Below, one piece after another: positions 4,571 through 32,735 of a stretch of 64,000 nt of DNA. Below the pieces are notes generated by a model. It was given only the letters and a program-made list of their open reading frames with translations. It did not search any database and had not been told where the DNA came from. Source of the stretch: Enterobacteria phage RB18. Position 1 is the stretch's first letter, and each line of letters starts with the position of its first letter. The position numbers were made by a program, and so were the translations under genes. The stretch lies in the sequence record NC_054906.1; one strand, 5' to 3'.

Positions 4571-5208
4571 TGAATGAACCCCAATTACTAATTGAAACTT
4601 GGGGTCAACCTGGCGAAATTATTGATGGCGTACCAATGCTTGAATCTCATGATGGAAAAGACTTAGGTTTAAAACCGGGTTTATACATCGAAGGAATATT
4701 CATGCAAGCGGAAGTTGTCAATAGAAATAAACGTCTTTATCCAAAACGTATATTAGAAAAAGCGGTAAAAGACTATATTAATGAGCAAGTTTTAACTAAA
4801 CAAGCTCTCGGAGAATTAAATCATCCTCCACGCGCTAATGTTGACCCGATGCAAGCCGCTATCATTATAGAAGATATGTGGTGGAAAGGAAATGACGTAT
4901 ACGGACGAGCTCGTGTTATTGAAGGTGACCATGGTCCTGGAGATAAATTAGCAGCTAATATTCGTGCCGGATGGATTCCAGGAGTTTCTTCTCGTGGATT
5001 AGGTTCATTGACTGACACAAATAAAGGTTATCGTATCGTAAACGAAGGATTCAAATTAACTGTAGGTGTTGATGCAGTATGGGGTCCAAGTGCTCCAGAT
5101 GCATGGGTAACTCCTAAGGAAATTACCGAATCACAGACGGCGGAAGCCGATACAAGTGCCGATGACGCCTATATGGCTCTCGCAGAGGCCATGAAAAAAG
5201 CGTTATAA
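4570..5208 (+). CDS. 21: Prohead core scaffold / maturation protease gp21 (212 aa)
   Basis: Length and sequence match T4 gp21; TAATG coupling to gene 68. Confidence 0.92.
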   Translation: MNEPQLLIETWGQPGEIIDGVPMLESHDGKDLGLKPGLYIEGIFMQAEVVNRNKRLYPKRILEKAVKDYINEQVLTKQALGELNHPPRANVDPMQAAIIIEDMWWKGNDVYGRARVIEGDHGPGDKLAANIRAGWIPGVSSRGLGSLTDTNKGYRIVNEGFKLTVGVDAVWGPSAPDAWVTPKEITESQTAEADTSADDAYMALAEAMKKAL

Positions 5209-5211
5209 ATA
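5204..5211 (+). promoter_or_regulatory. Late promoter TATAAATA (gene 22), overlapping gene 21 stop
   Basis: Exact consensus. Confidence 0.7.
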
Positions 5212-5238
5212 TTATTATCTAAACAACAGGACTACAAA

Positions 5239-6048
5239 ATGCTTAAAGAACAACTGATTGCCGAAGCGCAGAAAATTGATGCTTCCGTTGCTCTTGATAG
5301 TATTTTCGAATCAGTTAATATTTCTCCGGAAGCAAAAGAAACTTTCGGCACTGTATTCGAAGCTACCGTCAAGCAGCACGCCGTTAAATTAGCTGAATCT
5401 CATATCGCTAAAATTGCTGAAAAAGCAGAAGAAGAAGTAGAAAAAAATAAAGAAGAAGCCGAAGAAAAAGCTGAGAAGAAAATCGCTGAGCAAGCTTCTA
5501 AATTCATTGACCATCTTGCGAAAGAATGGCTCGCTGAAAATAAATTAGCAGTTGATAAAGGCATCAAAGCCGAACTGTTTGAATCCATGCTTGGTGGATT
5601 AAAAGAGCTCTTTGTTGAACACAACGTTGTTGTTCCAGAAGAATCAGTTGATGTTGTAGCTGAAATGGAAGAAGAGCTGCAAGAACATAAAGAAGAATCA
5701 GCTCGTCTGTTCGAAGAACTCAATAAGCGTGACGCATATATCAATTATGTGCAGCGTGAAGTGGCATTGAGCGAAAGTACTAAAGATCTGACTGAGTCTC
5801 AAAAAGAAAAAGTCTCTGCTCTGGTCGAAGGTATGGATTATTCAGATGCATTCTCAAGTAAATTGAGTGCAATCGTAGAAATGGTGAAGAAATCTAATAA
5901 AGATGAAAGCACTATTACTGAGAGTATAAATACTCCTGATACTGAAGCAGCCGGACTGAATTTCGTCACTGAAGCTGTAGAAGATAAAGCTGCACAGGGT
6001 GCAGAAGATATTGTAAGTGTATATGCGAAAGTCGCATCTCGTTTCTAA
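5239..6048 (+). CDS. 22: Prohead core scaffold protein gp22 (269 aa, Glu/Lys-rich coiled coil)
   Basis: Late promoter TATAAATA at 5204-5211; length 269 aa; composition typical of gp22. Confidence 0.9.
   Translation: MLKEQLIAEAQKIDASVALDSIFESVNISPEAKETFGTVFEATVKQHAVKLAESHIAKIAEKAEEEVEKNKEEAEEKAEKKIAEQASKFIDHLAKEWLAENKLAVDKGIKAELFESMLGGLKELFVEHNVVVPEESVDVVAEMEEELQEHKEESARLFEELNKRDAYINYVQREVALSESTKDLTESQKEKVSALVEGMDYSDAFSSKLSAIVEMVKKSNKDESTITESINTPDTEAAGLNFVTEAVEDKAAQGAEDIVSVYAKVASRF
5925..5932 (+). promoter_or_regulatory. Late promoter TATAAATA inside 3' end of gene 22 (candidate gene 23 promoter)
   Basis: Exact consensus about 135 nt upstream of gene 23 ATG. Confidence 0.55.
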
Positions 6049-6066
6049 TTTTAAAGGTTAACACAA

Positions 6067-7632
6067 ATGACTATCAAAACTAAAGCTGAACTTTTGAACA
6101 AATGGAAGCCATTACTGGAAGGTGAAGGTTTACCGGAAATTGCTAATAGCAAACAAGCGATTATCGCTAAAATCTTTGAAAACCAGGAAAAAGATTTCCA
6201 GACAGCTCCGGAATATAAAGACGAAAAAATTGCTCAGGCATTCGGTTCTTTCTTAACAGAAGCTGAAATCGGCGGTGACCACGGTTACAATGCTACTAAC
6301 ATCGCTGCAGGTCAGACTTCTGGCGCAGTAACTCAGATTGGCCCAGCTGTTATGGGTATGGTACGTCGTGCTATTCCTAACCTGATTGCTTTCGATATTT
6401 GTGGTGTTCAGCCGATGAACAGCCCGACTGGCCAGGTATTCGCACTGCGTGCAGTATATGGTAAAGATCCAATCGCTTCCGGTGCTAAAGAAGCATTCCA
6501 CCCAATGTATGGTCCAGATGCAATGTTCTCTGGTCAGGGTGCTGCTAAGAAATTCCCAGCTCTTGCTGCTAGCACACAAACCGTTGTAGGTGATATCTAT
6601 ACTCACTTCTTCCAGGAAACTGGTACTGTGTATCTGCAAGCTTCCGCTGTAGTAACAATCGATGCTGGTGCGACTGATGCTGCTAAATTAGATGCCGAAG
6701 TTAAGAAACAAATGGAAGCTGGTGTACTGGTAGAAATCGCTGAAGGCATGGCTACTTCTATCGCTGAACTTCAGGAAGGTTTCAACGGTTCTACCGATAA
6801 CCCATGGAATGAAATGGGCTTCCGTATCGATAAACAAGTTATCGAAGCTAAATCTCGTCAGCTGAAAGCTGCTTACTCTATCGAATTAGCACAGGACCTC
6901 CGCGCTGTTCACGGTATGGATGCTGATGCTGAACTGTCTGGTATTCTGGCTACAGAAATTATGCTGGAAATCAACCGCGAAGTTGTTGATTGGATTAACT
7001 ACTCAGCTCAGGTTGGTAAATCTGGTATGACCCTGACTCCGGGTTCTAAAGCTGGTGTATTTGACTTCCAGGATCCGATTGATATTCGTGGTGCTCGCTG
7101 GGCAGGTGAATCCTTTAAAGCTCTGTTGTTCCAGATTGACAAAGAAGCAGTTGAAATTGCTCGTCAGACCGGTCGTGGTGAAGGTAACTTCATTATCGCT
7201 TCCCGTAACGTAGTTAACGTTCTGGCTTCAGTTGATACCGGCATTTCTTATGCTGCACAGGGTCTGGCTACCGGCTTTAACACTGATACTACCAAGTCAG
7301 TATTTGCTGGTGTTCTGGGTGGTAAATACCGTGTATATATCGACCAGTATGCTAAACAGGATTATTTCACTGTAGGTTATAAAGGTCCGAACGAAATGGA
7401 TGCTGGTATTTACTATGCTCCATATGTAGCTCTGACTCCGCTGCGTGGTTCCGATCCGAAGAACTTCCAACCGGTAATGGGATTCAAAACTCGTTACGGT
7501 ATCGGTATCAACCCATTTGCAGAATCCGCTGCTCAGGCTCCGGCTTCTCGCATCCAGAGCGGTATGCCTTCTATTCTGAATAGCCTTGGTAAAAACGCTT
7601 ACTTTAGACGTGTATATGTTAAAGGTATCTAA
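6067..7632 (+). CDS. 23: Major capsid protein gp23 (521 aa)
   Basis: 521 aa as in T4; high-expression codon usage; strong terminator hairpin immediately downstream. Confidence 0.95.
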   Translation: MTIKTKAELLNKWKPLLEGEGLPEIANSKQAIIAKIFENQEKDFQTAPEYKDEKIAQAFGSFLTEAEIGGDHGYNATNIAAGQTSGAVTQIGPAVMGMVRRAIPNLIAFDICGVQPMNSPTGQVFALRAVYGKDPIASGAKEAFHPMYGPDAMFSGQGAAKKFPALAASTQTVVGDIYTHFFQETGTVYLQASAVVTIDAGATDAAKLDAEVKKQMEAGVLVEIAEGMATSIAELQEGFNGSTDNPWNEMGFRIDKQVIEAKSRQLKAAYSIELAQDLRAVHGMDADAELSGILATEIMLEINREVVDWINYSAQVGKSGMTLTPGSKAGVFDFQDPIDIRGARWAGESFKALLFQIDKEAVEIARQTGRGEGNFIIASRNVVNVLASVDTGISYAAQGLATGFNTDTTKSVFAGVLGGKYRVYIDQYAKQDYFTVGYKGPNEMDAGIYYAPYVALTPLRGSDPKNFQPVMGFKTRYGIGINPFAESAAQAPASRIQSGMPSILNSLGKNAYFRRVYVKGI

Positions 7633-23672: not shown

Positions 23673-23726
23673 TCCTCATGTTATGTCAGTAAGACTACTA
23701 TAACACAATATGAGGGACTTGTAAAC
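23673..23726 (-). repeat. 54-bp leader element, copy A (early-type promoter GTTTAC-N18-TATAGT plus leader stem-loop) upstream of alt.-3-like gene
   Basis: 51 of 54 identical to 38812-38865; -35 at 23721-23726 overlaps stop of Alt paralog. Confidence 0.7.
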
Positions 23727-25783
23727 TACATTTTGAACTTTTTAGACATTCCGTTGATGTTAACCAAAGAAGCTAAGATTTGAGAAACTTCGTTTTCCTC
23801 TTCTTTTGATTCTTCTACAAGGAATTGATTAAATCCAGCCATTGGACGAACTTCTCCGGTTTCCATTAGATAGTCACCATCATATACTGATTCTTCTAAT
23901 TGTTCAGAAGGAGGAACGATTGTACCTTCGATTAGATACTTGTTATAAGCAGTTTCTTTCATAAAGTAAGTACTTACTTTATTAATCTTCAGTAAAATTC
24001 CACGCGGTAGAATAACTTCAGCTTCTGATGGAAATCCTGTTAAATGACCTGGAACGATAACTTTGATTCGCTCAGCTCCTTTAATTACCATACCCACGCT
24101 AGTTTCAGCATCTTCATTAGCATATGTAGAATGACTACCCATATGCATCAAATCTTCTGCATCAACAGAACCTTCTCCTTCACCAGAAAATACTGCGCCG
24201 GAATCATCTAGAGCCATATAGTTTTTACCATGCTCACCGAAGATATTTGGTTTAAGTGATGTCGATACGAAGTTCTTGAAATAGAACATTTTGTTTTCAA
24301 TGTTATGACGCAAAGTTTTAAAGGTAACTTCTTGTCCACGATAAAGCGTAGTTCCTGGAGGAAGAACTGAACCTTTAGCGAATGCAGAATCCAACGTCTC
24401 GATGTGCTTAATAGCTCGTTCCATATATTCTTCACGGGTAGAATCTGGTTTACCCAAAAGGAACGAGTTCATTTCAACATATGAATCTGCACAATAATCT
24501 TCAATTACATCAGATTCAGCTTGAGTTAATCCTTTTGGAGTTACTTCGGTGCTTGCGTATTCATATGCCTGAGCAGCAGATTCATTAATCAATTTATAAA
24601 TGCCATTCATGACAAATTGAATAATAGCTGTCTTTTCATCTGGCGTAGCTTTAGAACCTTTAACCAAATCATTGATAATTTTCTTAATAACATCAAAGCT
24701 ATTAGAAATATTAATATCAGCAAGATCGCTTAAAATTTTATCAGTTTTATAATCAAAGAATTCTTTATTCTTTAAATATTCTTGAGAACCTTGATATGTT
24801 ATATCGCTCTGCAACTTGATGGATGGATCACGTAAACGTGCATGGGCTAATGCAATATGATTTCGGAAGTTTTCTAGTTCATAATCGCTAGATTTAAAAC
24901 GAGAAGCACTCCTCATACCACCGATAGCTCCTTTGTTGAAGTTTGAACCAATCTGAATAACGCCAGAGTTCATTGGTCCTTCTGCTTTATATACCGGAAC
25001 TTTGGATTCAAACTCTTGATATTTCTTAGCAGCGAAGCTATCACCCTGAAGTGAAGCATCAACAGTAGAATATTGAGCTTGTGCTGCTAATCGACGACTA
25101 ATTTTAGTTTTCTGAATAACAGCTTGGTCAGTGCGCTTATCATTTTCTAAAGCAATAGAAGCAGCAACTGCGACAGCTTTAGGAACAGCATTACCTGTTT
25201 TAACGTCTACATAAACATCACCAACCTTTGATTCAACTTTTGTGAATAACTCAGCTGAAATAGGAGGTACACCTGGAATGTCTTCTAAATTGGCATTTTT
25301 ACGGTAAACCATAATATATGCATATTTCTTATCATAGTCCCAGATTTCCTTTAAAAGAACATATCGGCCTGCTCCTTTAGTACGTACTAAACGGTCAGCA
25401 ATAACTTGCATTTGACGAGCAGCGCCATTTGTTTTACTCTTTAGTACGCGGAATAAGCATGCATCAATTTTATACTGTTTCATTGTTTGAAGAGCAGTAT
25501 CAAAAACAGCATTAATGACGCCAATTGGATTTCCACCCAAGTTTTTAAGCTTAACTAATGATAGTTTCTCATTAACACCTATCATTACGATATGCATCAT
25601 TTTGTCGCCTGGCTTAACGTTTTTATTCGTATCACCGCCAGAGGTGTATGTACAAAATCTAAATCCGGGGAGAACGCTTTCTTCACCGGCTTGAATAGCA
25701 AAAATTTGTGGTATTTTATGCTTAGGATTTAAGTTAACAACCGGCGCCGAAGCGCCGTCAAATAATTCTGTAATAAGTTCCAT
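23726..25783 (-). CDS. Alt-like mono-ADP-ribosyltransferase paralog (685 aa), intact
   Basis: N-terminus MELITELFDG identical in type to Alt; C-terminal R (LYRGQ), STS (FVSTSL) and EAEV motifs; diverged central region. Confidence 0.85.
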   Translation of the reverse strand: MELITELFDGASAPVVNLNPKHKIPQIFAIQAGEESVLPGFRFCTYTSGGDTNKNVKPGDKMMHIVMIGVNEKLSLVKLKNLGGNPIGVINAVFDTALQTMKQYKIDACLFRVLKSKTNGAARQMQVIADRLVRTKGAGRYVLLKEIWDYDKKYAYIMVYRKNANLEDIPGVPPISAELFTKVESKVGDVYVDVKTGNAVPKAVAVAASIALENDKRTDQAVIQKTKISRRLAAQAQYSTVDASLQGDSFAAKKYQEFESKVPVYKAEGPMNSGVIQIGSNFNKGAIGGMRSASRFKSSDYELENFRNHIALAHARLRDPSIKLQSDITYQGSQEYLKNKEFFDYKTDKILSDLADINISNSFDVIKKIINDLVKGSKATPDEKTAIIQFVMNGIYKLINESAAQAYEYASTEVTPKGLTQAESDVIEDYCADSYVEMNSFLLGKPDSTREEYMERAIKHIETLDSAFAKGSVLPPGTTLYRGQEVTFKTLRHNIENKMFYFKNFVSTSLKPNIFGEHGKNYMALDDSGAVFSGEGEGSVDAEDLMHMGSHSTYANEDAETSVGMVIKGAERIKVIVPGHLTGFPSEAEVILPRGILLKINKVSTYFMKETAYNKYLIEGTIVPPSEQLEESVYDGDYLMETGEVRPMAGFNQFLVEESKEEENEVSQILASLVNINGMSKKFKM

Positions 25784-25786
25784 GAT

Positions 25787-27883
25787 TTATCCTTGAACGA
25801 ACTTGTAAGGCATGTTTGTAATATCTATGCAAGACGCAATAATTCCAAGAGATGATTCTACTTTCTGTTTAACATTTGATGAAACAAATGATGCAAAGTC
25901 AACTCTGTCTTCTATTTCAATATCACCTGTCATTGCAACCAATTCACCAGTTTCCATTAAATGGTCTCCGTCATAGATTACCGATTCGGTGAGTTCTTCG
26001 GTGGTCATAACTTCAGCTTGAATGAGTTTTGTATTATTAGACGTGGTTCCGTCATTATTAGAAGCATCAGTTATTTTATTAACTTTGACCATCAATCCGC
26101 GCGGTAGAATAACTTCAGCTTCTGTTGCTATTCCGAGATTTCCTGGATATACAACATTAACTTTATGAGCTCCATCAATTGCCCATCCTATTTGAACTTT
26201 AACGTATTCAGGATTTTCTTTATACGCTCTTATTTCGCTTGGATTAATAGTTATTCCTTCTTCATTTTTATCAACTGTCAATTCATTACGAGCTTCTGGT
26301 TCTAAAAGACCAATACCAGCATGTGTAATTCCAAAACGTCCAAAAATGATAGGAGTTAAAGAAGTAGATACAAAATTTCTGAAATAGAACACTTTATTTT
26401 TAACTAGTGCTTCGTATATAGGAGCAGTCATACTTTGAGCACGATAAACTGTGATGCCTTCCGGTATGCGGTCACCATTTTCAAAAGCTGAATCTAAGTT
26501 ATTTATAGCAGATTCAATTTCTTTTTCACTCATTACATCATATCGTTCTGGATTGTAACGACCTAAAAGAAGATTATTGATGTCAGTATATCCTGAACCG
26601 CAATATTCTCTAATGCCACGCTTTTGTGATGGAGTATATTTAGAACCATCGCGGGCAATAGTAATATCAATCATTGGACCAGCACCAATTCCAGAAAAAC
26701 TGTAAATCATTCGTTTGAGGAATTTAGTTTTTGCTGCGTTCCAGGAATTTTTAGTTATTTCTTCCCAGACTTCATCTGGTTGTCCTTTACGATTTTTATT
26801 ATGATTAGCAAGCCATTTATCTTTATAATCTTCAAAGAATTGATTTACAGCTGCTGCGTATTTCTCTAAACATTTTATTGAAGTAGTTGGTTCATTTTTA
26901 ATTGCATTAAAAATTACTTCTTTAATTTTTTCTGAAACTTCACCGACTTGACTCATTGGAAAGAATTTATAATCATAGTGAAGTTCATCTGCCGTTCCTT
27001 CAGCAATAATTTTTGCTGCCTTTGTTTTAGAAGCTAATGAATTAATTCCAATTTTCATTTCTTCTGCTTCGGGAATTAAAGGTGCAGTAGCTGGTTTATT
27101 AAAATTAGCTGCTGTAGATTCATACTTCTGGAATAATTCACTTTCAAATCTAGAAGATTCCAATGACTGACTTTGTGCAATTGCTCTACGGGAAATTTTA
27201 ACTTTAACGATTACAGCTTGGTCAGAACGTTTATCATTTTCTTGCGCAATAGATGCTGCAATTGCCTCATTTTTAGTTACTTGGGCTCCAGTATCTTTAT
27301 TGATATAAACATCACCGACTTTCGATTCAACTTTAGTAAAGAGCTCGGTACTAATTTCCGGAACTCCTGGAATGTCTTCTAGTGATACATTTTTGCGATG
27401 TATAAGAATATATGCATACTTTTTATCGTAATCCCAGAGTTCCTTAAGAAGGACGTATCTACCACCTGAACGACTACGGATAAGTCTATCAGCAATAACT
27501 TGAATTTGTCGAGCTTGGCCAGCAGTTTTAGACTTAAGAATACGAAGCATACAAGCATCAATTTTATATTGACGCATTGTTTGCATTGCAACAGTAAAAA
27601 CTGAATTGATATAATTAATCGGGCTTGGACCAAGACCTTTTAATTTGGCAATTGAACCTTTAGCAGTTAATGTAAAAGGAACAATATGCATCATTTTATC
27701 GCCCATCTTTAAATCGCGATTAGTATCACCTCCAGATGTATAGGTACATAAACGAAAGCCTGGTTGTTCAATTGCATCATCAACATGAACTGAAAAAATT
27801 TGTGGTATTTTCTTCTTTGGATTTAAGTTTGTAATCGGAAGAGTAGTATCTTCGTCAAATAATTCTGTAATAAGTTCCATCAT
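25787..27883 (-). CDS. alt: Alt ADP-ribosyltransferase, packaged internal head protein (697-698 aa)
   Basis: MELITELFDEDTTLPITNLNPKK N-terminus; VYRAQ / FVSTSL / TEAEV ART motifs; TATAAATA upstream; adjacent to gene 30 as in T4. Confidence 0.92.
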   Translation of the reverse strand: MMELITELFDEDTTLPITNLNPKKKIPQIFSVHVDDAIEQPGFRLCTYTSGGDTNRDLKMGDKMMHIVPFTLTAKGSIAKLKGLGPSPINYINSVFTVAMQTMRQYKIDACMLRILKSKTAGQARQIQVIADRLIRSRSGGRYVLLKELWDYDKKYAYILIHRKNVSLEDIPGVPEISTELFTKVESKVGDVYINKDTGAQVTKNEAIAASIAQENDKRSDQAVIVKVKISRRAIAQSQSLESSRFESELFQKYESTAANFNKPATAPLIPEAEEMKIGINSLASKTKAAKIIAEGTADELHYDYKFFPMSQVGEVSEKIKEVIFNAIKNEPTTSIKCLEKYAAAVNQFFEDYKDKWLANHNKNRKGQPDEVWEEITKNSWNAAKTKFLKRMIYSFSGIGAGPMIDITIARDGSKYTPSQKRGIREYCGSGYTDINNLLLGRYNPERYDVMSEKEIESAINNLDSAFENGDRIPEGITVYRAQSMTAPIYEALVKNKVFYFRNFVSTSLTPIIFGRFGITHAGIGLLEPEARNELTVDKNEEGITINPSEIRAYKENPEYVKVQIGWAIDGAHKVNVVYPGNLGIATEAEVILPRGLMVKVNKITDASNNDGTTSNNTKLIQAEVMTTEELTESVIYDGDHLMETGELVAMTGDIEIEDRVDFASFVSSNVKQKVESSLGIIASCIDITNMPYKFVQG

Positions 27884-27934: not shown

Positions 27935-28121
27935 AATAATCTAGTGGTAAGAGAGTACGGTATATTTCAAACTTTGGACCTTTTTCATAGGCATCAAATG
28001 TTTCTGTGAATTTATTATAAGCATATGCATCTACAAATTCGAGAATGACTTGTGATACAGAAGTAGAAACATCTCCACCTTCTTTTTGAGCAATGACAAT
28101 TGTTTCTAAGTAAGCTTTCAT
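27933..28121 (-). CDS. Small hypothetical protein (62 aa)
   Basis: ATG start overlapping gene 30 stop; hairpin downstream. Confidence 0.55.
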   Translation of the reverse strand: MKAYLETIVIAQKEGGDVSTSVSQVILEFVDAYAYNKFTETFDAYEKGPKFEIYRTLLPLDY

Positions 28122-29581
28122 AAACCAGTTACCTCATGAAAATCACCAAATACATCCTCGAATGTATTAGCTTTAGTTTTATCTTCACGTAAACGAATCG
28201 CAATCGGAAGAAATAATTTAACGTAATCAGTGCGGCCATCAGATTTTAACCAACCGTTACATTCGCACTCTAGAATTTTTCCAATATAATAATTTTGGTT
28301 TTCCATAATGCGAGTACGGTCAAGTTCATGTGATTTTACGCCGGCTTTATCTTTTAAGCCTGAACCAGCATTTACCTTAATTTTTCCACACTCTGACTCA
28401 AGAATAAATCCACCCGCTTTAGTAGGGTCTTTACGGTGAGGATAAATTCCTACAATTTTTAAATCAACATCAATTACTTCTTTAAATTTATAGAGATTTT
28501 TTGAACGAGCATTTTCCCATAATCCATCGATATTTTTGAGAATAATACCTTCAAGACCTTGGTCAATATACTTTTTATAAATTACCTTAGCTTCATCTAG
28601 GTTATTTACTACTTGGTTTTCAATTAAAATTACTTTATCATATCCTGATGTCATTTGTTCTAGTTTAGAAAAACGTACATCATATTTTAAACGAAACACC
28701 GGAAGACCATATATTTCTACTAATGGAACATAGTCCCAGACCTGAAACTTCATGCATTGAGCTTCTTTTTCTGAAATAGTTCCCTTTAAAGATTTATTGG
28801 CGATGCCATTAGATGCAGTACGTGATTCAGCTACTTCGGCGAATTCTTTAGCTTTACTAATTTCAGGATAAGCATCAAAAAGAAAATCTAGGCCTTCTGG
28901 CTCCTTTTTAACTTGCTCATGGTATACCAATTCGCCATCAATTAACACACCTTCTGGATGAATCTGGCGGGCTTCAGCGGTCATTTTAATTAACTCTTCC
29001 TTAAGAAGATCTAATCCTAGATATTCATTACCAGCTCGTGATAAAAGACGAACATCATCTAATTCATCACCTCTGACTTCAGCAAAGCACCGAGCTCCAT
29101 CAGCTTTTAACTGGGCAAAAGCTGGAAATTTGATATTCTTATTAATGCCTTTTTCATCATAAGAACTTGCAAGCATTTGAGGTTGTTCAGGAATTAAACC
29201 TGGCCAAACTTTGTTTGCAATAGATACTGAAGCACCGCATTCAAGGTCTCGCATCATCACACGACGCAAAACTTCAACATCATCTTTTTTACCGTCAGTA
29301 ATATATCCAGTTAATTCCTCAATTGCCGCATTTCCAGTCAATTTCCGAGTAGCTAACGTTAATTCAATGAAGTCAAGCATATCGGTAAGAGTCAACATTC
29401 CAAAACTCTGGGTAGCAATACCCGGTTTAGGCCATTTCTTGATATAATACTGTAACCCGCGAGAATAAGTCAGACGATATACTCGTTTAAGCAATTCATT
29501 ATCTTTGTTCTTTTCAAGAATTGCTTGCTTCTGCTTAGTTGAACCAATAGATGCTATTTCGTTCAGAATTTTAAGAATCAT
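28118..29581 (-). CDS. 30: ATP-dependent DNA ligase gp30 (487 aa)
   Basis: 487 aa; adenylation lysine context; synteny. Confidence 0.93.
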   Translation of the reverse strand: MILKILNEIASIGSTKQKQAILEKNKDNELLKRVYRLTYSRGLQYYIKKWPKPGIATQSFGMLTLTDMLDFIELTLATRKLTGNAAIEELTGYITDGKKDDVEVLRRVMMRDLECGASVSIANKVWPGLIPEQPQMLASSYDEKGINKNIKFPAFAQLKADGARCFAEVRGDELDDVRLLSRAGNEYLGLDLLKEELIKMTAEARQIHPEGVLIDGELVYHEQVKKEPEGLDFLFDAYPEISKAKEFAEVAESRTASNGIANKSLKGTISEKEAQCMKFQVWDYVPLVEIYGLPVFRLKYDVRFSKLEQMTSGYDKVILIENQVVNNLDEAKVIYKKYIDQGLEGIILKNIDGLWENARSKNLYKFKEVIDVDLKIVGIYPHRKDPTKAGGFILESECGKIKVNAGSGLKDKAGVKSHELDRTRIMENQNYYIGKILECECNGWLKSDGRTDYVKLFLPIAIRLREDKTKANTFEDVFGDFHEVTGL

Positions 29582-29847
29582 TGTTCATCCTTTAGAGTTT
29601 GGTTTACAGCTCTATTATAAATCAATTCATCATTAAGCTCAGTCAAAGACCTGTGGTACGTGGTTCTAACTTTATTTCCTTGCATCCAGTGCTTGACGTA
29701 AATGAAACCTTGCTCTACACATTTTTTAAAAATTCGTTCGTCTTTTTGAGCTCGGAATTCTGGATTGCATCTAAAAAATTGATTTACGTGACCGTAATCA
29801 CGTGTAGTATTACCTTCATTTTCATAAATAGTGTGAACGACAAACAT
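29578..29847 (-). CDS. Hypothetical protein (89 aa, T4 30.1 position)
   Basis: ATGA coupling; synteny. Confidence 0.65.
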   Translation of the reverse strand: MFVVHTIYENEGNTTRDYGHVNQFFRCNPEFRAQKDERIFKKCVEQGFIYVKHWMQGNKVRTTYHRSLTELNDELIYNRAVNQTLKDEQ

Positions 29848-30683
29848 TAGAATGCTCCTTGGAAAATATTATCACCACTAGTAGGTCTATTATACAAATA
29901 CTCTATGCCACCAGGTTTAATATAGTTCCATGTCTGAAACGGATGTGTCTGATATGGATGATATAGATTATAAGGATTAAATCCAGGAGTTCTCCAGGTA
30001 GTGTTCCAAGGAAAAGAATCATTTTTAATCATCTTTTCAATTACATCTTTTATAACTTTTTCACTATCAAAACTTTCTTTATTTTCCTTCGATGGAAAAA
30101 GCTTATTCTCTACATCATTCCATGTATAAACTCGCTGAGCGGTTTTTGGAATACTGTCACGCTCCCCTCGAGCCATCCAATAAACAGGAACATTTAATAT
30201 TTCACTCGCGTGATCGCAATGGTGAGCGAGATCGTCAATATAACAAATTACGTTATATTTCTCTTTTGCCTTTTTGAACAACTCTTCTTTTGAAGAATCA
30301 TGACCACACATCAATACTTCTGAGAAGGCACCAGGAAAAAGAGCATTCAAATTAAATTGACGATTCAGCAGAGCGTCAATAGAATCACCCAATGCTGTAA
30401 CAGCTACAAAATTATAATCTTCTTTTAATTTGTTAATTACACACAGGGCATCTTTATATGGAGACAAGTAACGAATAAAATCTGAACGATTATACTTTTC
30501 GATTAATTTAACACCGAGTTCTTCATCGCAATTAAAGAGCTTACCAGGAGAAATAAATTTTTCGTCCTGAATCATTTTTAAAATATGTTCCAACGGAAGA
30601 TTATATTTTTGGGCAAAATAAGGAAGGCCCGATTGCCAGCTTAAACATACCCCGTCAATATCAGTCAAAATAGTAGGCTTCAT
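29847..30683 (-). CDS. HAD-superfamily hydrolase-like protein (278 aa, T4 30.2 position)
   Basis: N-terminal DIDGV motif I of HAD phosphatases; downstream DD motif. Confidence 0.7.
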   Translation of the reverse strand: MKPTILTDIDGVCLSWQSGLPYFAQKYNLPLEHILKMIQDEKFISPGKLFNCDEELGVKLIEKYNRSDFIRYLSPYKDALCVINKLKEDYNFVAVTALGDSIDALLNRQFNLNALFPGAFSEVLMCGHDSSKEELFKKAKEKYNVICYIDDLAHHCDHASEILNVPVYWMARGERDSIPKTAQRVYTWNDVENKLFPSKENKESFDSEKVIKDVIEKMIKNDSFPWNTTWRTPGFNPYNLYHPYQTHPFQTWNYIKPGGIEYLYNRPTSGDNIFQGAF

Positions 30684-31138
30684 AGAGAGTCTCTTAATAG
30701 GTTTAACACATCAATAAATTCAGCTTCGGTTAGTATTGTATCATCTTTTGTTAGACCGCTGGCCATGCTGTGCTTCAAAATTTTTCCTTTAGAGGCTTGT
30801 AAGGCATCACGAAACCCCTTGTTTTGAATCGCTGCTTCAAAATATGCATTTGTGTACAACTCTTTCCACGCTGGTGAGTATCTTGAAAACGGAACTCCAA
30901 GCCAGAAGAGGGTCCCACGGTCCTGAGCTCTAGCATAAGACCTTCCAGCTTGTTGGGCGGCAAGCCCGGATAACCCAAATATACGTCTTTGCTGCTCAAC
31001 ATTTTTCACCTTGCATCCTTGGAGGAATCCTTCGAGACCTCCAAATTGAATACCATCCATGACGAAAGGCCATTGGGCGAAATTACTTAATGCGCATGAT
31101 GGCCATCTAAAATTGCTTCTAATCTCTAACTCAGACAT
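30680..31138 (-). CDS. NADAR/YbiA-like (DUF1768-type) protein (T4 30.3 position)
   Basis: SNFAQWP...DG...E...Q..K pattern resembling YbiA core; track ORF begins at TTG 31144, first ATG 31138. Confidence 0.55.
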   Translation of the reverse strand: MSELEIRSNFRWPSCALSNFAQWPFVMDGIQFGGLEGFLQGCKVKNVEQQRRIFGLSGLAAQQAGRSYARAQDRGTLFWLGVPFSRYSPAWKELYTNAYFEAAIQNKGFRDALQASKGKILKHSMASGLTKDDTILTEAEFIDVLNLLRDSL

Positions 31139-31337
31139 TTTCAATACTTATAATTTCAACATCAGCCCAATGACCATAACAAGGAAGACGAAATTCAACT
31201 GGCCAGTTAGGGTCCTTTTCTAATATAATAGACTTAACTTGTGGTTCTTCATGTTCATCAGTATATGGATTTTTATCTGTTACTTTATATGTGACCTTAA
31301 TGTACTGAATTCCAAAAATCTTATTAATTATATTCAT
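31131..31337 (-). CDS. Hypothetical protein (68 aa)
   Basis: ATG start, tightly packed operon. Confidence 0.55.
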   Translation of the reverse strand: MNIINKIFGIQYIKVTYKVTDKNPYTDEHEEPQVKSIILEKDPNWPVEFRLPCYGHWADVEIISIENV

Positions 31338-32292: not shown

Positions 32293-32625
32293 TTATTTTA
32301 CTACTTTCCAATGCTGCATGTCAAGTTTACCAACTTTTTTCATCTTCTCAATTAAGCGTTCGGCACGTTGGCGAGCTGTAACATAATACCATTCACCTAA
32401 TTCATTTTGTTCAATTTTTCCAACGATTACTGTATTCAATTCATAAATCCAACCAGTAAAGAAATTATGAACTTGAATTGTAAAGGTGAAATCTGTTCCC
32501 ATACCTTCTGTTGTTTCTACTTCAATAATATCACCTTCAACTGCCATTAAGAACCACATAGTTTCATCATATTTACCATTGAAGCATTTAGTTTTAACTG
32601 TAGCGTTCAGATTAATCGTTTTCAT
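32293..32625 (-). CDS. Hypothetical protein (110 aa)
   Basis: ATG start; early-type promoter 32653-32682 upstream. Confidence 0.6.
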   Translation of the reverse strand: MKTINLNATVKTKCFNGKYDETMWFLMAVEGDIIEVETTEGMGTDFTFTIQVHNFFTGWIYELNTVIVGKIEQNELGEWYYVTARQRAERLIEKMKKVGKLDMQHWKVVK

Positions 32626-32700: not shown

Positions 32701-32731
32701 GAAAATAAAAAAGGACTCCCGAAGGAGTCCT
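32701..32731 (-). terminator. Rho-independent terminator GGACTCC-CGAA-GGAGTCC + T-run (minus strand)
   Basis: 7-bp stem, tetraloop, TTTTTATTTTC on minus strand. Confidence 0.8.
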
Positions 32732-32735
32732 CAAC

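Follow-up and report, generated by a model that had tools for sequence, protein, structure and literature searches.

Genes 30.2 and 30.3 of Enterobacteria phage RB18: a predicted C1-capped HAD phosphatase beside a T4-type AdfN NADAR protein

Gene 30.3 of phage T4 encodes a NADAR-fold protein that Johannesman et al. (Nat Commun 2025; PMC11825919) renamed AdfN, for anti-DarT factor NADAR. T2 and T4 lacking adfN form no plaques on hosts carrying DarTG1, RB69, in which a frameshift truncates adfN, is rescued by ectopic adfN, and the thymidine-specific system DarTG2 is not countered by AdfN (PMC11825919). The frameshift costs RB69 AdfN 15 residues and leaves the protein inactive. Purified AdfN strips ADP-ribose from DarT1-modified DNA, and the substitutions E36A and K43A each impair the T4 protein (PMC11825919). 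The T4 NADAR hydrolyses guanosine-ADP-ribose, but neither thymidine-ADP-ribose nor cytidine-ADP-ribose (PMC11125620, PMC12945103). A literature search on gp30.2, the product of the adjoining gene, found no paper. Here we describe both genes as they occur in a stretch of 64,000 nucleotides from Enterobacteria phage RB18 (NC_054906.1), referred to below as the window.

AdfN can be set against two other NADAR proteins. DarG1, the NADAR antitoxin of DarTG1 (BC4488 family; for example Geobacter lovleyi, 8bat, and E. coli C7), carries an N-terminal extension that is absent in AdfN and a catalytic Asp where AdfN has a His; moreover, AdfN, unlike DarG1, has no adjoining DarT gene and in uninfected E. 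coli fails to neutralise DarT1 (PMC11825919, PMC11125620). E. coli YbiA (2b3w, PF08719), which takes part in glycosidase chemistry on riboflavin intermediates, has a Glu in the last strand. The phage NADAR clade is recognised by a His at this position, which is occupied by Glu in YbiA and by Asp in DarG1 (PMC11543638, PMC11125620).

The RB18 window is a genome segment of a T4-like phage (Tequatrovirus). The 1.9-kb stretch around 30.2 and 30.3 matches 673 phage records and is 97.4–98.4% identical to the 20 best-matching ones, which include JLBYU22, wV7 and RB51. Given these matches, together with those of 30.3 to PF08010 ('Phage_30_3'; E = 5e-70, Pfam search) and of 30.2 to phrog_420 (E = 2e-92), both are genuine genes and not chance open reading frames. 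Our analysis indicates that they are very probably two independent early genes of T4-like phages: 30.3, encoding AdfN, a DNA glycosidase acting on guanosine-ADP-ribose, and 30.2, encoding a HAD-superfamily phosphomonoesterase that is not required for the anti-DarTG1 function.

The NADAR protein gp30.3 and its T4 counterpart

Read from its ATG, 30.3 encodes 152 amino acids, in agreement with T4 gp30.3 in both length and the numbering of E36 and K43; the form of 154 amino acids that was also proposed for this reading frame merely starts from an in-frame TTG at 31144. The RB18 and T4 proteins are identical at 150 of 152 positions and collinear to the last residue. The two differences (I120 for V and M124 for I) are conservative, and nothing hints at a functional difference. 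The gene also occupies the same place in the genome as in T4 and overlaps 30.4 and 30.2 in the same way, and E36, K43, H123 and the C-terminal helix (residues 140–153 in the model of the 154-residue form) are all intact.

The original prediction had recognized in this gene the SNFA-WP...DG...E...Q..K pattern of the NADAR fold, and the residues concerned are indeed present as A-L-S18-N19-F20-A-Q-W23-P24 ... D28-G29 ... E36 ... Q40..K43. Single-sequence searches of the PDB and NCBIfam with 30.3 returned nothing significant, and profiles and structure prediction were needed. A profile built from 58 family members detects E. coli YbiA through the SNF...E..Q..K segment (E = 4e-4), with E36 and K43, located in the first helix, aligned to the E..Q..K of YbiA. 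A narrower profile of 10 gp30.3 sequences reaches YbiA only at E = 0.055. Nine of the 58 members match PF08719 at E ≤ 0.01, and the predicted fold resembles NADAR structures only. As H123 supplies the His of the phage NADAR clade, 30.3 is a NADAR-fold protein of the gp30.3/AdfN clade, and the first assignment of this gene holds.

Fold and residues were observed here; the de-ADP-ribosylase activity and the DarTG1 phenotype that we ascribe to the RB18 protein rest on its 99%-identical T4 counterpart in the literature. By this analogy, RB18 AdfN would be a minimal NADAR-fold N-glycosidase whose target is ADP-ribose placed on phage DNA by the host toxin DarT1. The enzyme would cut the bond that joins ADP-ribose, through its ribose, to guanine N2, yielding normal guanine and free ADP-ribose, and replication could then proceed in cells that carry DarTG1. 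Two suggestions made from the RB18 DNA alone, that a phage NADAR could process ADP-ribosylated nucleic acid and that its deletion should matter on hosts with DarTG-type defence, are thus already in print, the former for the T4 protein (PMC11825919, PMC11125620, PMC12945103) and the latter for adfN of T4 and T2 (PMC11825919). The NADAR half of the locus is known, and the window adds nothing new to it.

The family to which 30.3 belongs (loci L095–L159; proteins P0123–P0269) is far larger than the T4-like phages, an exhaustive profile search at E ≤ 1e-3 giving 1,451 clusters at 50% identity. Members with an N-terminal extension of roughly 140 residues, or forming part of a fused protein of 300–560 amino acids, are numerous, and the T4 neighbours are absent at most of the viral loci. 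The window also preserves an open reading frame of 75 amino acids lying within adfN in another frame (30775–31002, minus strand); its T4 equivalent is annotated as 30.3' ('internal translation, in a different reading frame').

gp30.2 and the C1-capped HAD phosphatases

The gp30.2 family is large, with at least 100 homologues among the matches listed. Curated HAD models of Pfam and NCBIfam gave no match above cut-off for 30.2 itself (the best in Pfam was PF25109 at E = 0.17, and NCBIfam returned nothing relevant), and a single-sequence PDB search gave nothing significant, so that here too profiles and structure prediction were needed. We assessed conservation over 30 homologues with 33–74% identity, and it is among these that curated families appear: seven match PF00702 (best E = 3.5e-4) and four match PF06941, NT5C (best E = 1.2e-4). 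The DxDGV motif from which a HAD phosphatase had originally been proposed is present as D8-I-D10-G-V, and all four HAD motifs are conserved across the 30 homologues (Table 1), which sustains the proposal. W16, S18, Y64, S67, R108, N111 and R172, distributed over cap and core, are also invariant.

The structural model of 30.2 has pLDDT (predicted local distance difference test) values above 90 for residues 1–190 and a disordered tail from about residue 200. Its core has the Rossmann-like HAD fold, and five helices (residues 16–72) form a C1 cap between core strands 1 and 2. The best PDB match of the family profile is the 5'(3')-deoxyribonucleotidase cdN (2jao, E = 0.019), with W16 standing opposite the Phe of DMDGVLADF, and the alignment with 3bwv covers 162 of the 168 residues of that protein. 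Sequence and model together identify gp30.2 as a predicted C1-capped HAD phosphatase with intact catalytic motifs, whose nearest relatives appear to be 5'(3')-deoxyribonucleotidases of the NT5C type. With NT5C proteins (PF06941; mouse and human cdN, 2jao and 6g2n; Staphylococcus epidermidis 3bwv) it appears to share the HAD core, the helical C1 cap and a DxDGV motif with an aromatic residue at +8 (Phe in NT5C, W16 in gp30.2). Identity to NT5C is only about 20%, however, and no gp30.2 member was seen above the curated threshold.

On this basis gp30.2 would be a Mg2+-dependent HAD phosphomonoesterase in which the helical C1 cap encloses a small substrate. Because its nearest relatives appear to be NT5C nucleotidases, the substrate is most likely a (deoxy)nucleoside monophosphate or another small phosphate ester of that kind.

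Long-form gp30.2 proteins differ from NT5C in a further disordered tail of some 80 residues. In RB18 this C-terminal tail (residues ~200–278; 29847–30085, minus strand) has no counterpart in short-form homologues of about 200 amino acids. The long forms share a near-terminal motif, G-[TG]-G-I-E-Y-x3-[QR]-P-T, which may be a protein-interaction peptide.

The relation of 30.2 to 30.3

A transposon screen of T4 (HIDEN-SEQ data, bioRxiv 10.1101/2025.11.20.689424) bears directly on the relation of the two genes. Both 30.3 and 30.2 are dispensable on E. coli K-12. On DarTG1, insertions in 30.3 are lost (log2 fold change -7.25, adjusted p 0), whereas those in 30.2 are neutral (log2 fold change -0.12, p 0.61, 71 sites), as are insertions in 30.1, alt (log2 fold change -0.01) and adfA/61.2.

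The same data speak to what AdfN acts upon. Iyer et al. 2022 (PMC9503650) noted T4-like NADARs as early genes beside ADP-ribosyltransferases and leaned towards soluble ADP-ribose derivatives as their substrates; NADARs also take guanosine-ADP-ribose off RNA (PMC12945103), and in the window two Alt paralogues lie nearby, the end of the nearer one 2.8 kb from 30.3. The enzyme might then act mainly on soluble NAD or ADP-ribose derivatives, or reverse protein or RNA ADP-ribosylation made by Alt, with the DNA activity a side activity. We consider this improbable. The phenotype of the adfN deletion on DarTG1 is complete and specific (PMC11825919), alt insertions have no effect in the screen, 30.3 is non-essential where DarTG1 is absent, and in many genomes the NADAR gene is far from alt.

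We then consider the gene neighbourhoods, taking 78 viral loci with a gp30.2 homologue (L001–L078), which dereplicate at 90% identity to 40 lineages. In 34 of the 40, a ligase gene follows the HAD gene on the same strand within 700 nt, with or without 30.1 between them. The ligase gene, rather than the NADAR gene, is thus the steady partner of the HAD gene in gene order. Lineages with this HAD–ligase order include phages with genomes of about 220–235 kb.

Such proximity could be taken to mean that gp30.2 is a Pnkp-like polynucleotide 3'-phosphatase healing DNA ends for the adjacent ligase, and there are faint matches to PNKP phosphatase domains (phrog_415 at E = 0.004, in addition to PF25109 mentioned above). 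Since the HAD–ligase order is conserved within one phage family, where gene order can be inherited without being functional, it does not by itself prove a functional tie; the C1 cap makes end-healing unlikely, and T4-like phages already encode a Pnkp. An end-healing role therefore seems doubtful at best. A tentative alternative, which we hold to be possible but short of probable, is that gp30.2 represents an uncharacterised clade of NT5C-like C1-capped HADs, held directly upstream of the ligase gene across Straboviridae, with a (deoxy)nucleotide substrate and a role, independent of AdfN, in nucleotide-pool control or in counter-defence against nucleotide-based immunity.

Linkage of the HAD gene to 30.3 is inconsistent. 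A gp30.3-type NADAR gene adjoins the HAD gene in 8 of the 40 lineages, lies elsewhere within 6 kb in 10 and is absent from the flanks in 22. Conversely, a gp30.2-type HAD gene is found within 6 kb at 21 of 80 gp30.3-type NADAR loci and is missing from the other 59. At least 11 T4-like genomes keep the HAD–ligase pair but have the NADAR gene some 57 kb distant, as on the contig shared by L015 and L111. The neutrality of 30.2 insertions on DarTG1 and this inconsistent linkage argue that 30.2 and 30.3 do not form a functional module, and no functional tie of the HAD to the NADAR or Alt genes is supported.

A joint pathway of the two enzymes would have the NADAR release ADP-ribose, or a product derived from it, for processing by the HAD; in another version gp30.2 would be the phage factor that was proposed to explain why AdfN of T4 is fully effective only during Tevenvirinae infection (PMC11825919). 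The two genes are co-transcribed with a 4-nt overlap (ATGA), which would suit either version. The first is already largely refuted by the transposon data, and we rejected the second on those data together with the co-occurrence counts. Purified AdfN is, furthermore, active on its own in vitro (PMC11825919, PMC11125620). Taken together, we regard any such partnership as very unlikely.

Several points nonetheless weigh against independence or against the assignments on which it rests. In 18 of the 40 lineages the NADAR gene is found upstream of the HAD gene at a distance of no more than 6 kb, which is above random placement, although shared ancestry can explain it, and one contig (L109) holds a HAD and a NADAR gene in the reverse order, a second arrangement of the pair. 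The DarTG1 sheet in the supplement of the screen was assigned by sheet order and by the depletion of 30.3, its header not having been read, and the screen covers a single host, condition and defence system. Finally, PF08719, the curated Pfam NADAR model, does not match 30.3 at E ≤ 1, so that in sequence the link to NADAR is made at the profile level only.

The contig with the reverse order (IMGVR_UViG_2786546475_000015, a viral contig of 166 kb) carries at 4709–6453 a gp30.2-like HAD gene, an open reading frame of 155 amino acids and unknown function, and a gp30.3-type NADAR gene, in the order opposite to that of T4. No ligase gene is nearby, and the contig may represent an independent juxtaposition of HAD and NADAR.

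Least credible of all is a riboflavin-pathway pair, with the NADAR as an N-glycosidase for reactive riboflavin intermediates, an activity that E. coli YbiA has (cited in PMC11543638), and the HAD as a YigB-like pathway phosphatase, in keeping with the automatic JGI name of one metagenomic gp30.2 homologue ('FMN phosphatase YigB (HAD superfamily)'): we rejected it on the His that replaces the YbiA-defining Glu in the gp30.3 clade and on the want of steady linkage between the genes, and the experimentally shown substrate is guanosine-ADP-ribosylated DNA, while no riboflavin genes were noticed among the open reading frames at 26–36 kb, the rest of the window not having been checked for them.

The gene run from 30.7 to gene 30 and its implications

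Every gene from about 23.7 to 36 kb of the window is on the minus strand, and the layout is that of T4 itself, the order of transcription being cd, 31, rIII, 30.9 to 30.4, 30.3, 30.2, 30.1, 30 (ligase), alt.1, alt and second alt. Genes 30.2 and 30.3 have the coordinates first given for them, and the ligase gene and the tandem Alt genes are situated as first described. The direction of the run had been reversed, however: 30.2 lies downstream of 30.3, not upstream, and gene 30 closes the 30.4–30 run instead of starting an operon (Table 1). The tandem Alt paralogues, of 685 and 698 amino acids, are 41% identical; T4 has a single alt followed by the small open reading frames alt.-1 to alt.-3.

Stop and start codons overlap throughout this run, as ATGTCTGA at 30.4/30.3, ATGA at 30.3/30.2, TAATG at 30.2/30.1 and ATGA at 30.1/30. 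Because of the overlap of the 30.4 stop with the adfN start, and because no Shine-Dalgarno sequence precedes the adfN ATG, 30.4 and adfN are probably translationally coupled. In the T4 screen, insertions in 30.4 are mildly depleted on DarTG1 (log2 fold change -1.79, adjusted p 0.014) and those in 30.6 and 30.7 are not (bioRxiv 10.1101/2025.11.20.689424). The simplest account of this depletion is coupling or polarity; that gp30.4 is instead the missing T-even-specific helper of AdfN, and not just its coupling partner, has perhaps an outside chance.

A consensus scan for promoters and terminators performed no better than chance, with 20 sites against 19.6 expected from shuffled sequence, and found no minus-strand terminator-like hairpin from 32.7 kb to 27.8 kb. 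The best sigma-70-like site of the region, just upstream of 30.7, and a strong hairpin terminator upstream of 30.8 may bound a transcription unit that runs from 30.7 to gene 30.

Table 1. Positions in the RB18 window of the genes, catalytic residues and candidate transcription signals discussed in the text
Feature	Position	Strand	Remarks
Candidate hairpin terminator, strong, with T-run, upstream of 30.8	32732..32711	-	
Sigma-70-like site TTGACA-18-TAAAAT, just upstream of 30.7	32324..32295	-	11/12 consensus positions; best in region
Gene 30.4 (68 aa)	31131..31337	-	phrog_2042 match
Gene 30.3, adfN (152 aa); stand-alone NADAR domain, phage gp30.3 clade	30680..31138	-	DNA guanine de-ADP-ribosylase, by analogy with T4
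E36 codon, catalytic Glu of AdfN	31031..31033	-	Invariant in 58 family members
K43 codon, catalytic Lys of AdfN	31010..31012	-	Conserved in ≥90% of 58 members
H123 codon, His in last beta-strand (L-K-H-S)	30770..30772	-	≥90% of 58 members; predicted strand
Gene 30.2 (278 aa); predicted C1-capped HAD-superfamily phosphatase	29847..30683	-	Core residues 1–200; predicted disordered tail ~200–278
HAD motif I, D8-I-D10-G-V (predicted nucleophile Asp and general acid/base Asp)	30648..30662	-	D8, D10, G11 invariant in 30 homologues
HAD motif II, T96	30396..30398	-	≥90% of homologues; followed by invariant A97; end of strand 91–96
HAD motif III, K132	30288..30290	-	Invariant
HAD motif IV, D150-D151 (predicted Mg2+ ligands)	30231..30236	-	Both invariant; end of strand 145–150
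Gene 30.1 (DUF3045), between HAD and ligase genes	29578..29847	-	PF11243, E = 3e-64
Gene 30, ATP-dependent DNA ligase	28118..29581	-	PF01068
Alt ADP-ribosyltransferase paralogue, nearer	25787..27883	-	PF03496
Second Alt ADP-ribosyltransferase paralogue	23726..25783	-	PF03496

Of the two genes, the NADAR is already known and the HAD is an ordinary finding. AdfN can be thought of as an orphan antitoxin-like enzyme with which a lytic phage would remove a mark that host immunity has placed on its DNA. Annotation of the 30.2 HAD as a component of an ADP-ribose module should be avoided. As a widely conserved, ligase-linked and non-essential T4 gene whose predicted active site is intact, 30.2 lends itself to a simple enzyme screen.

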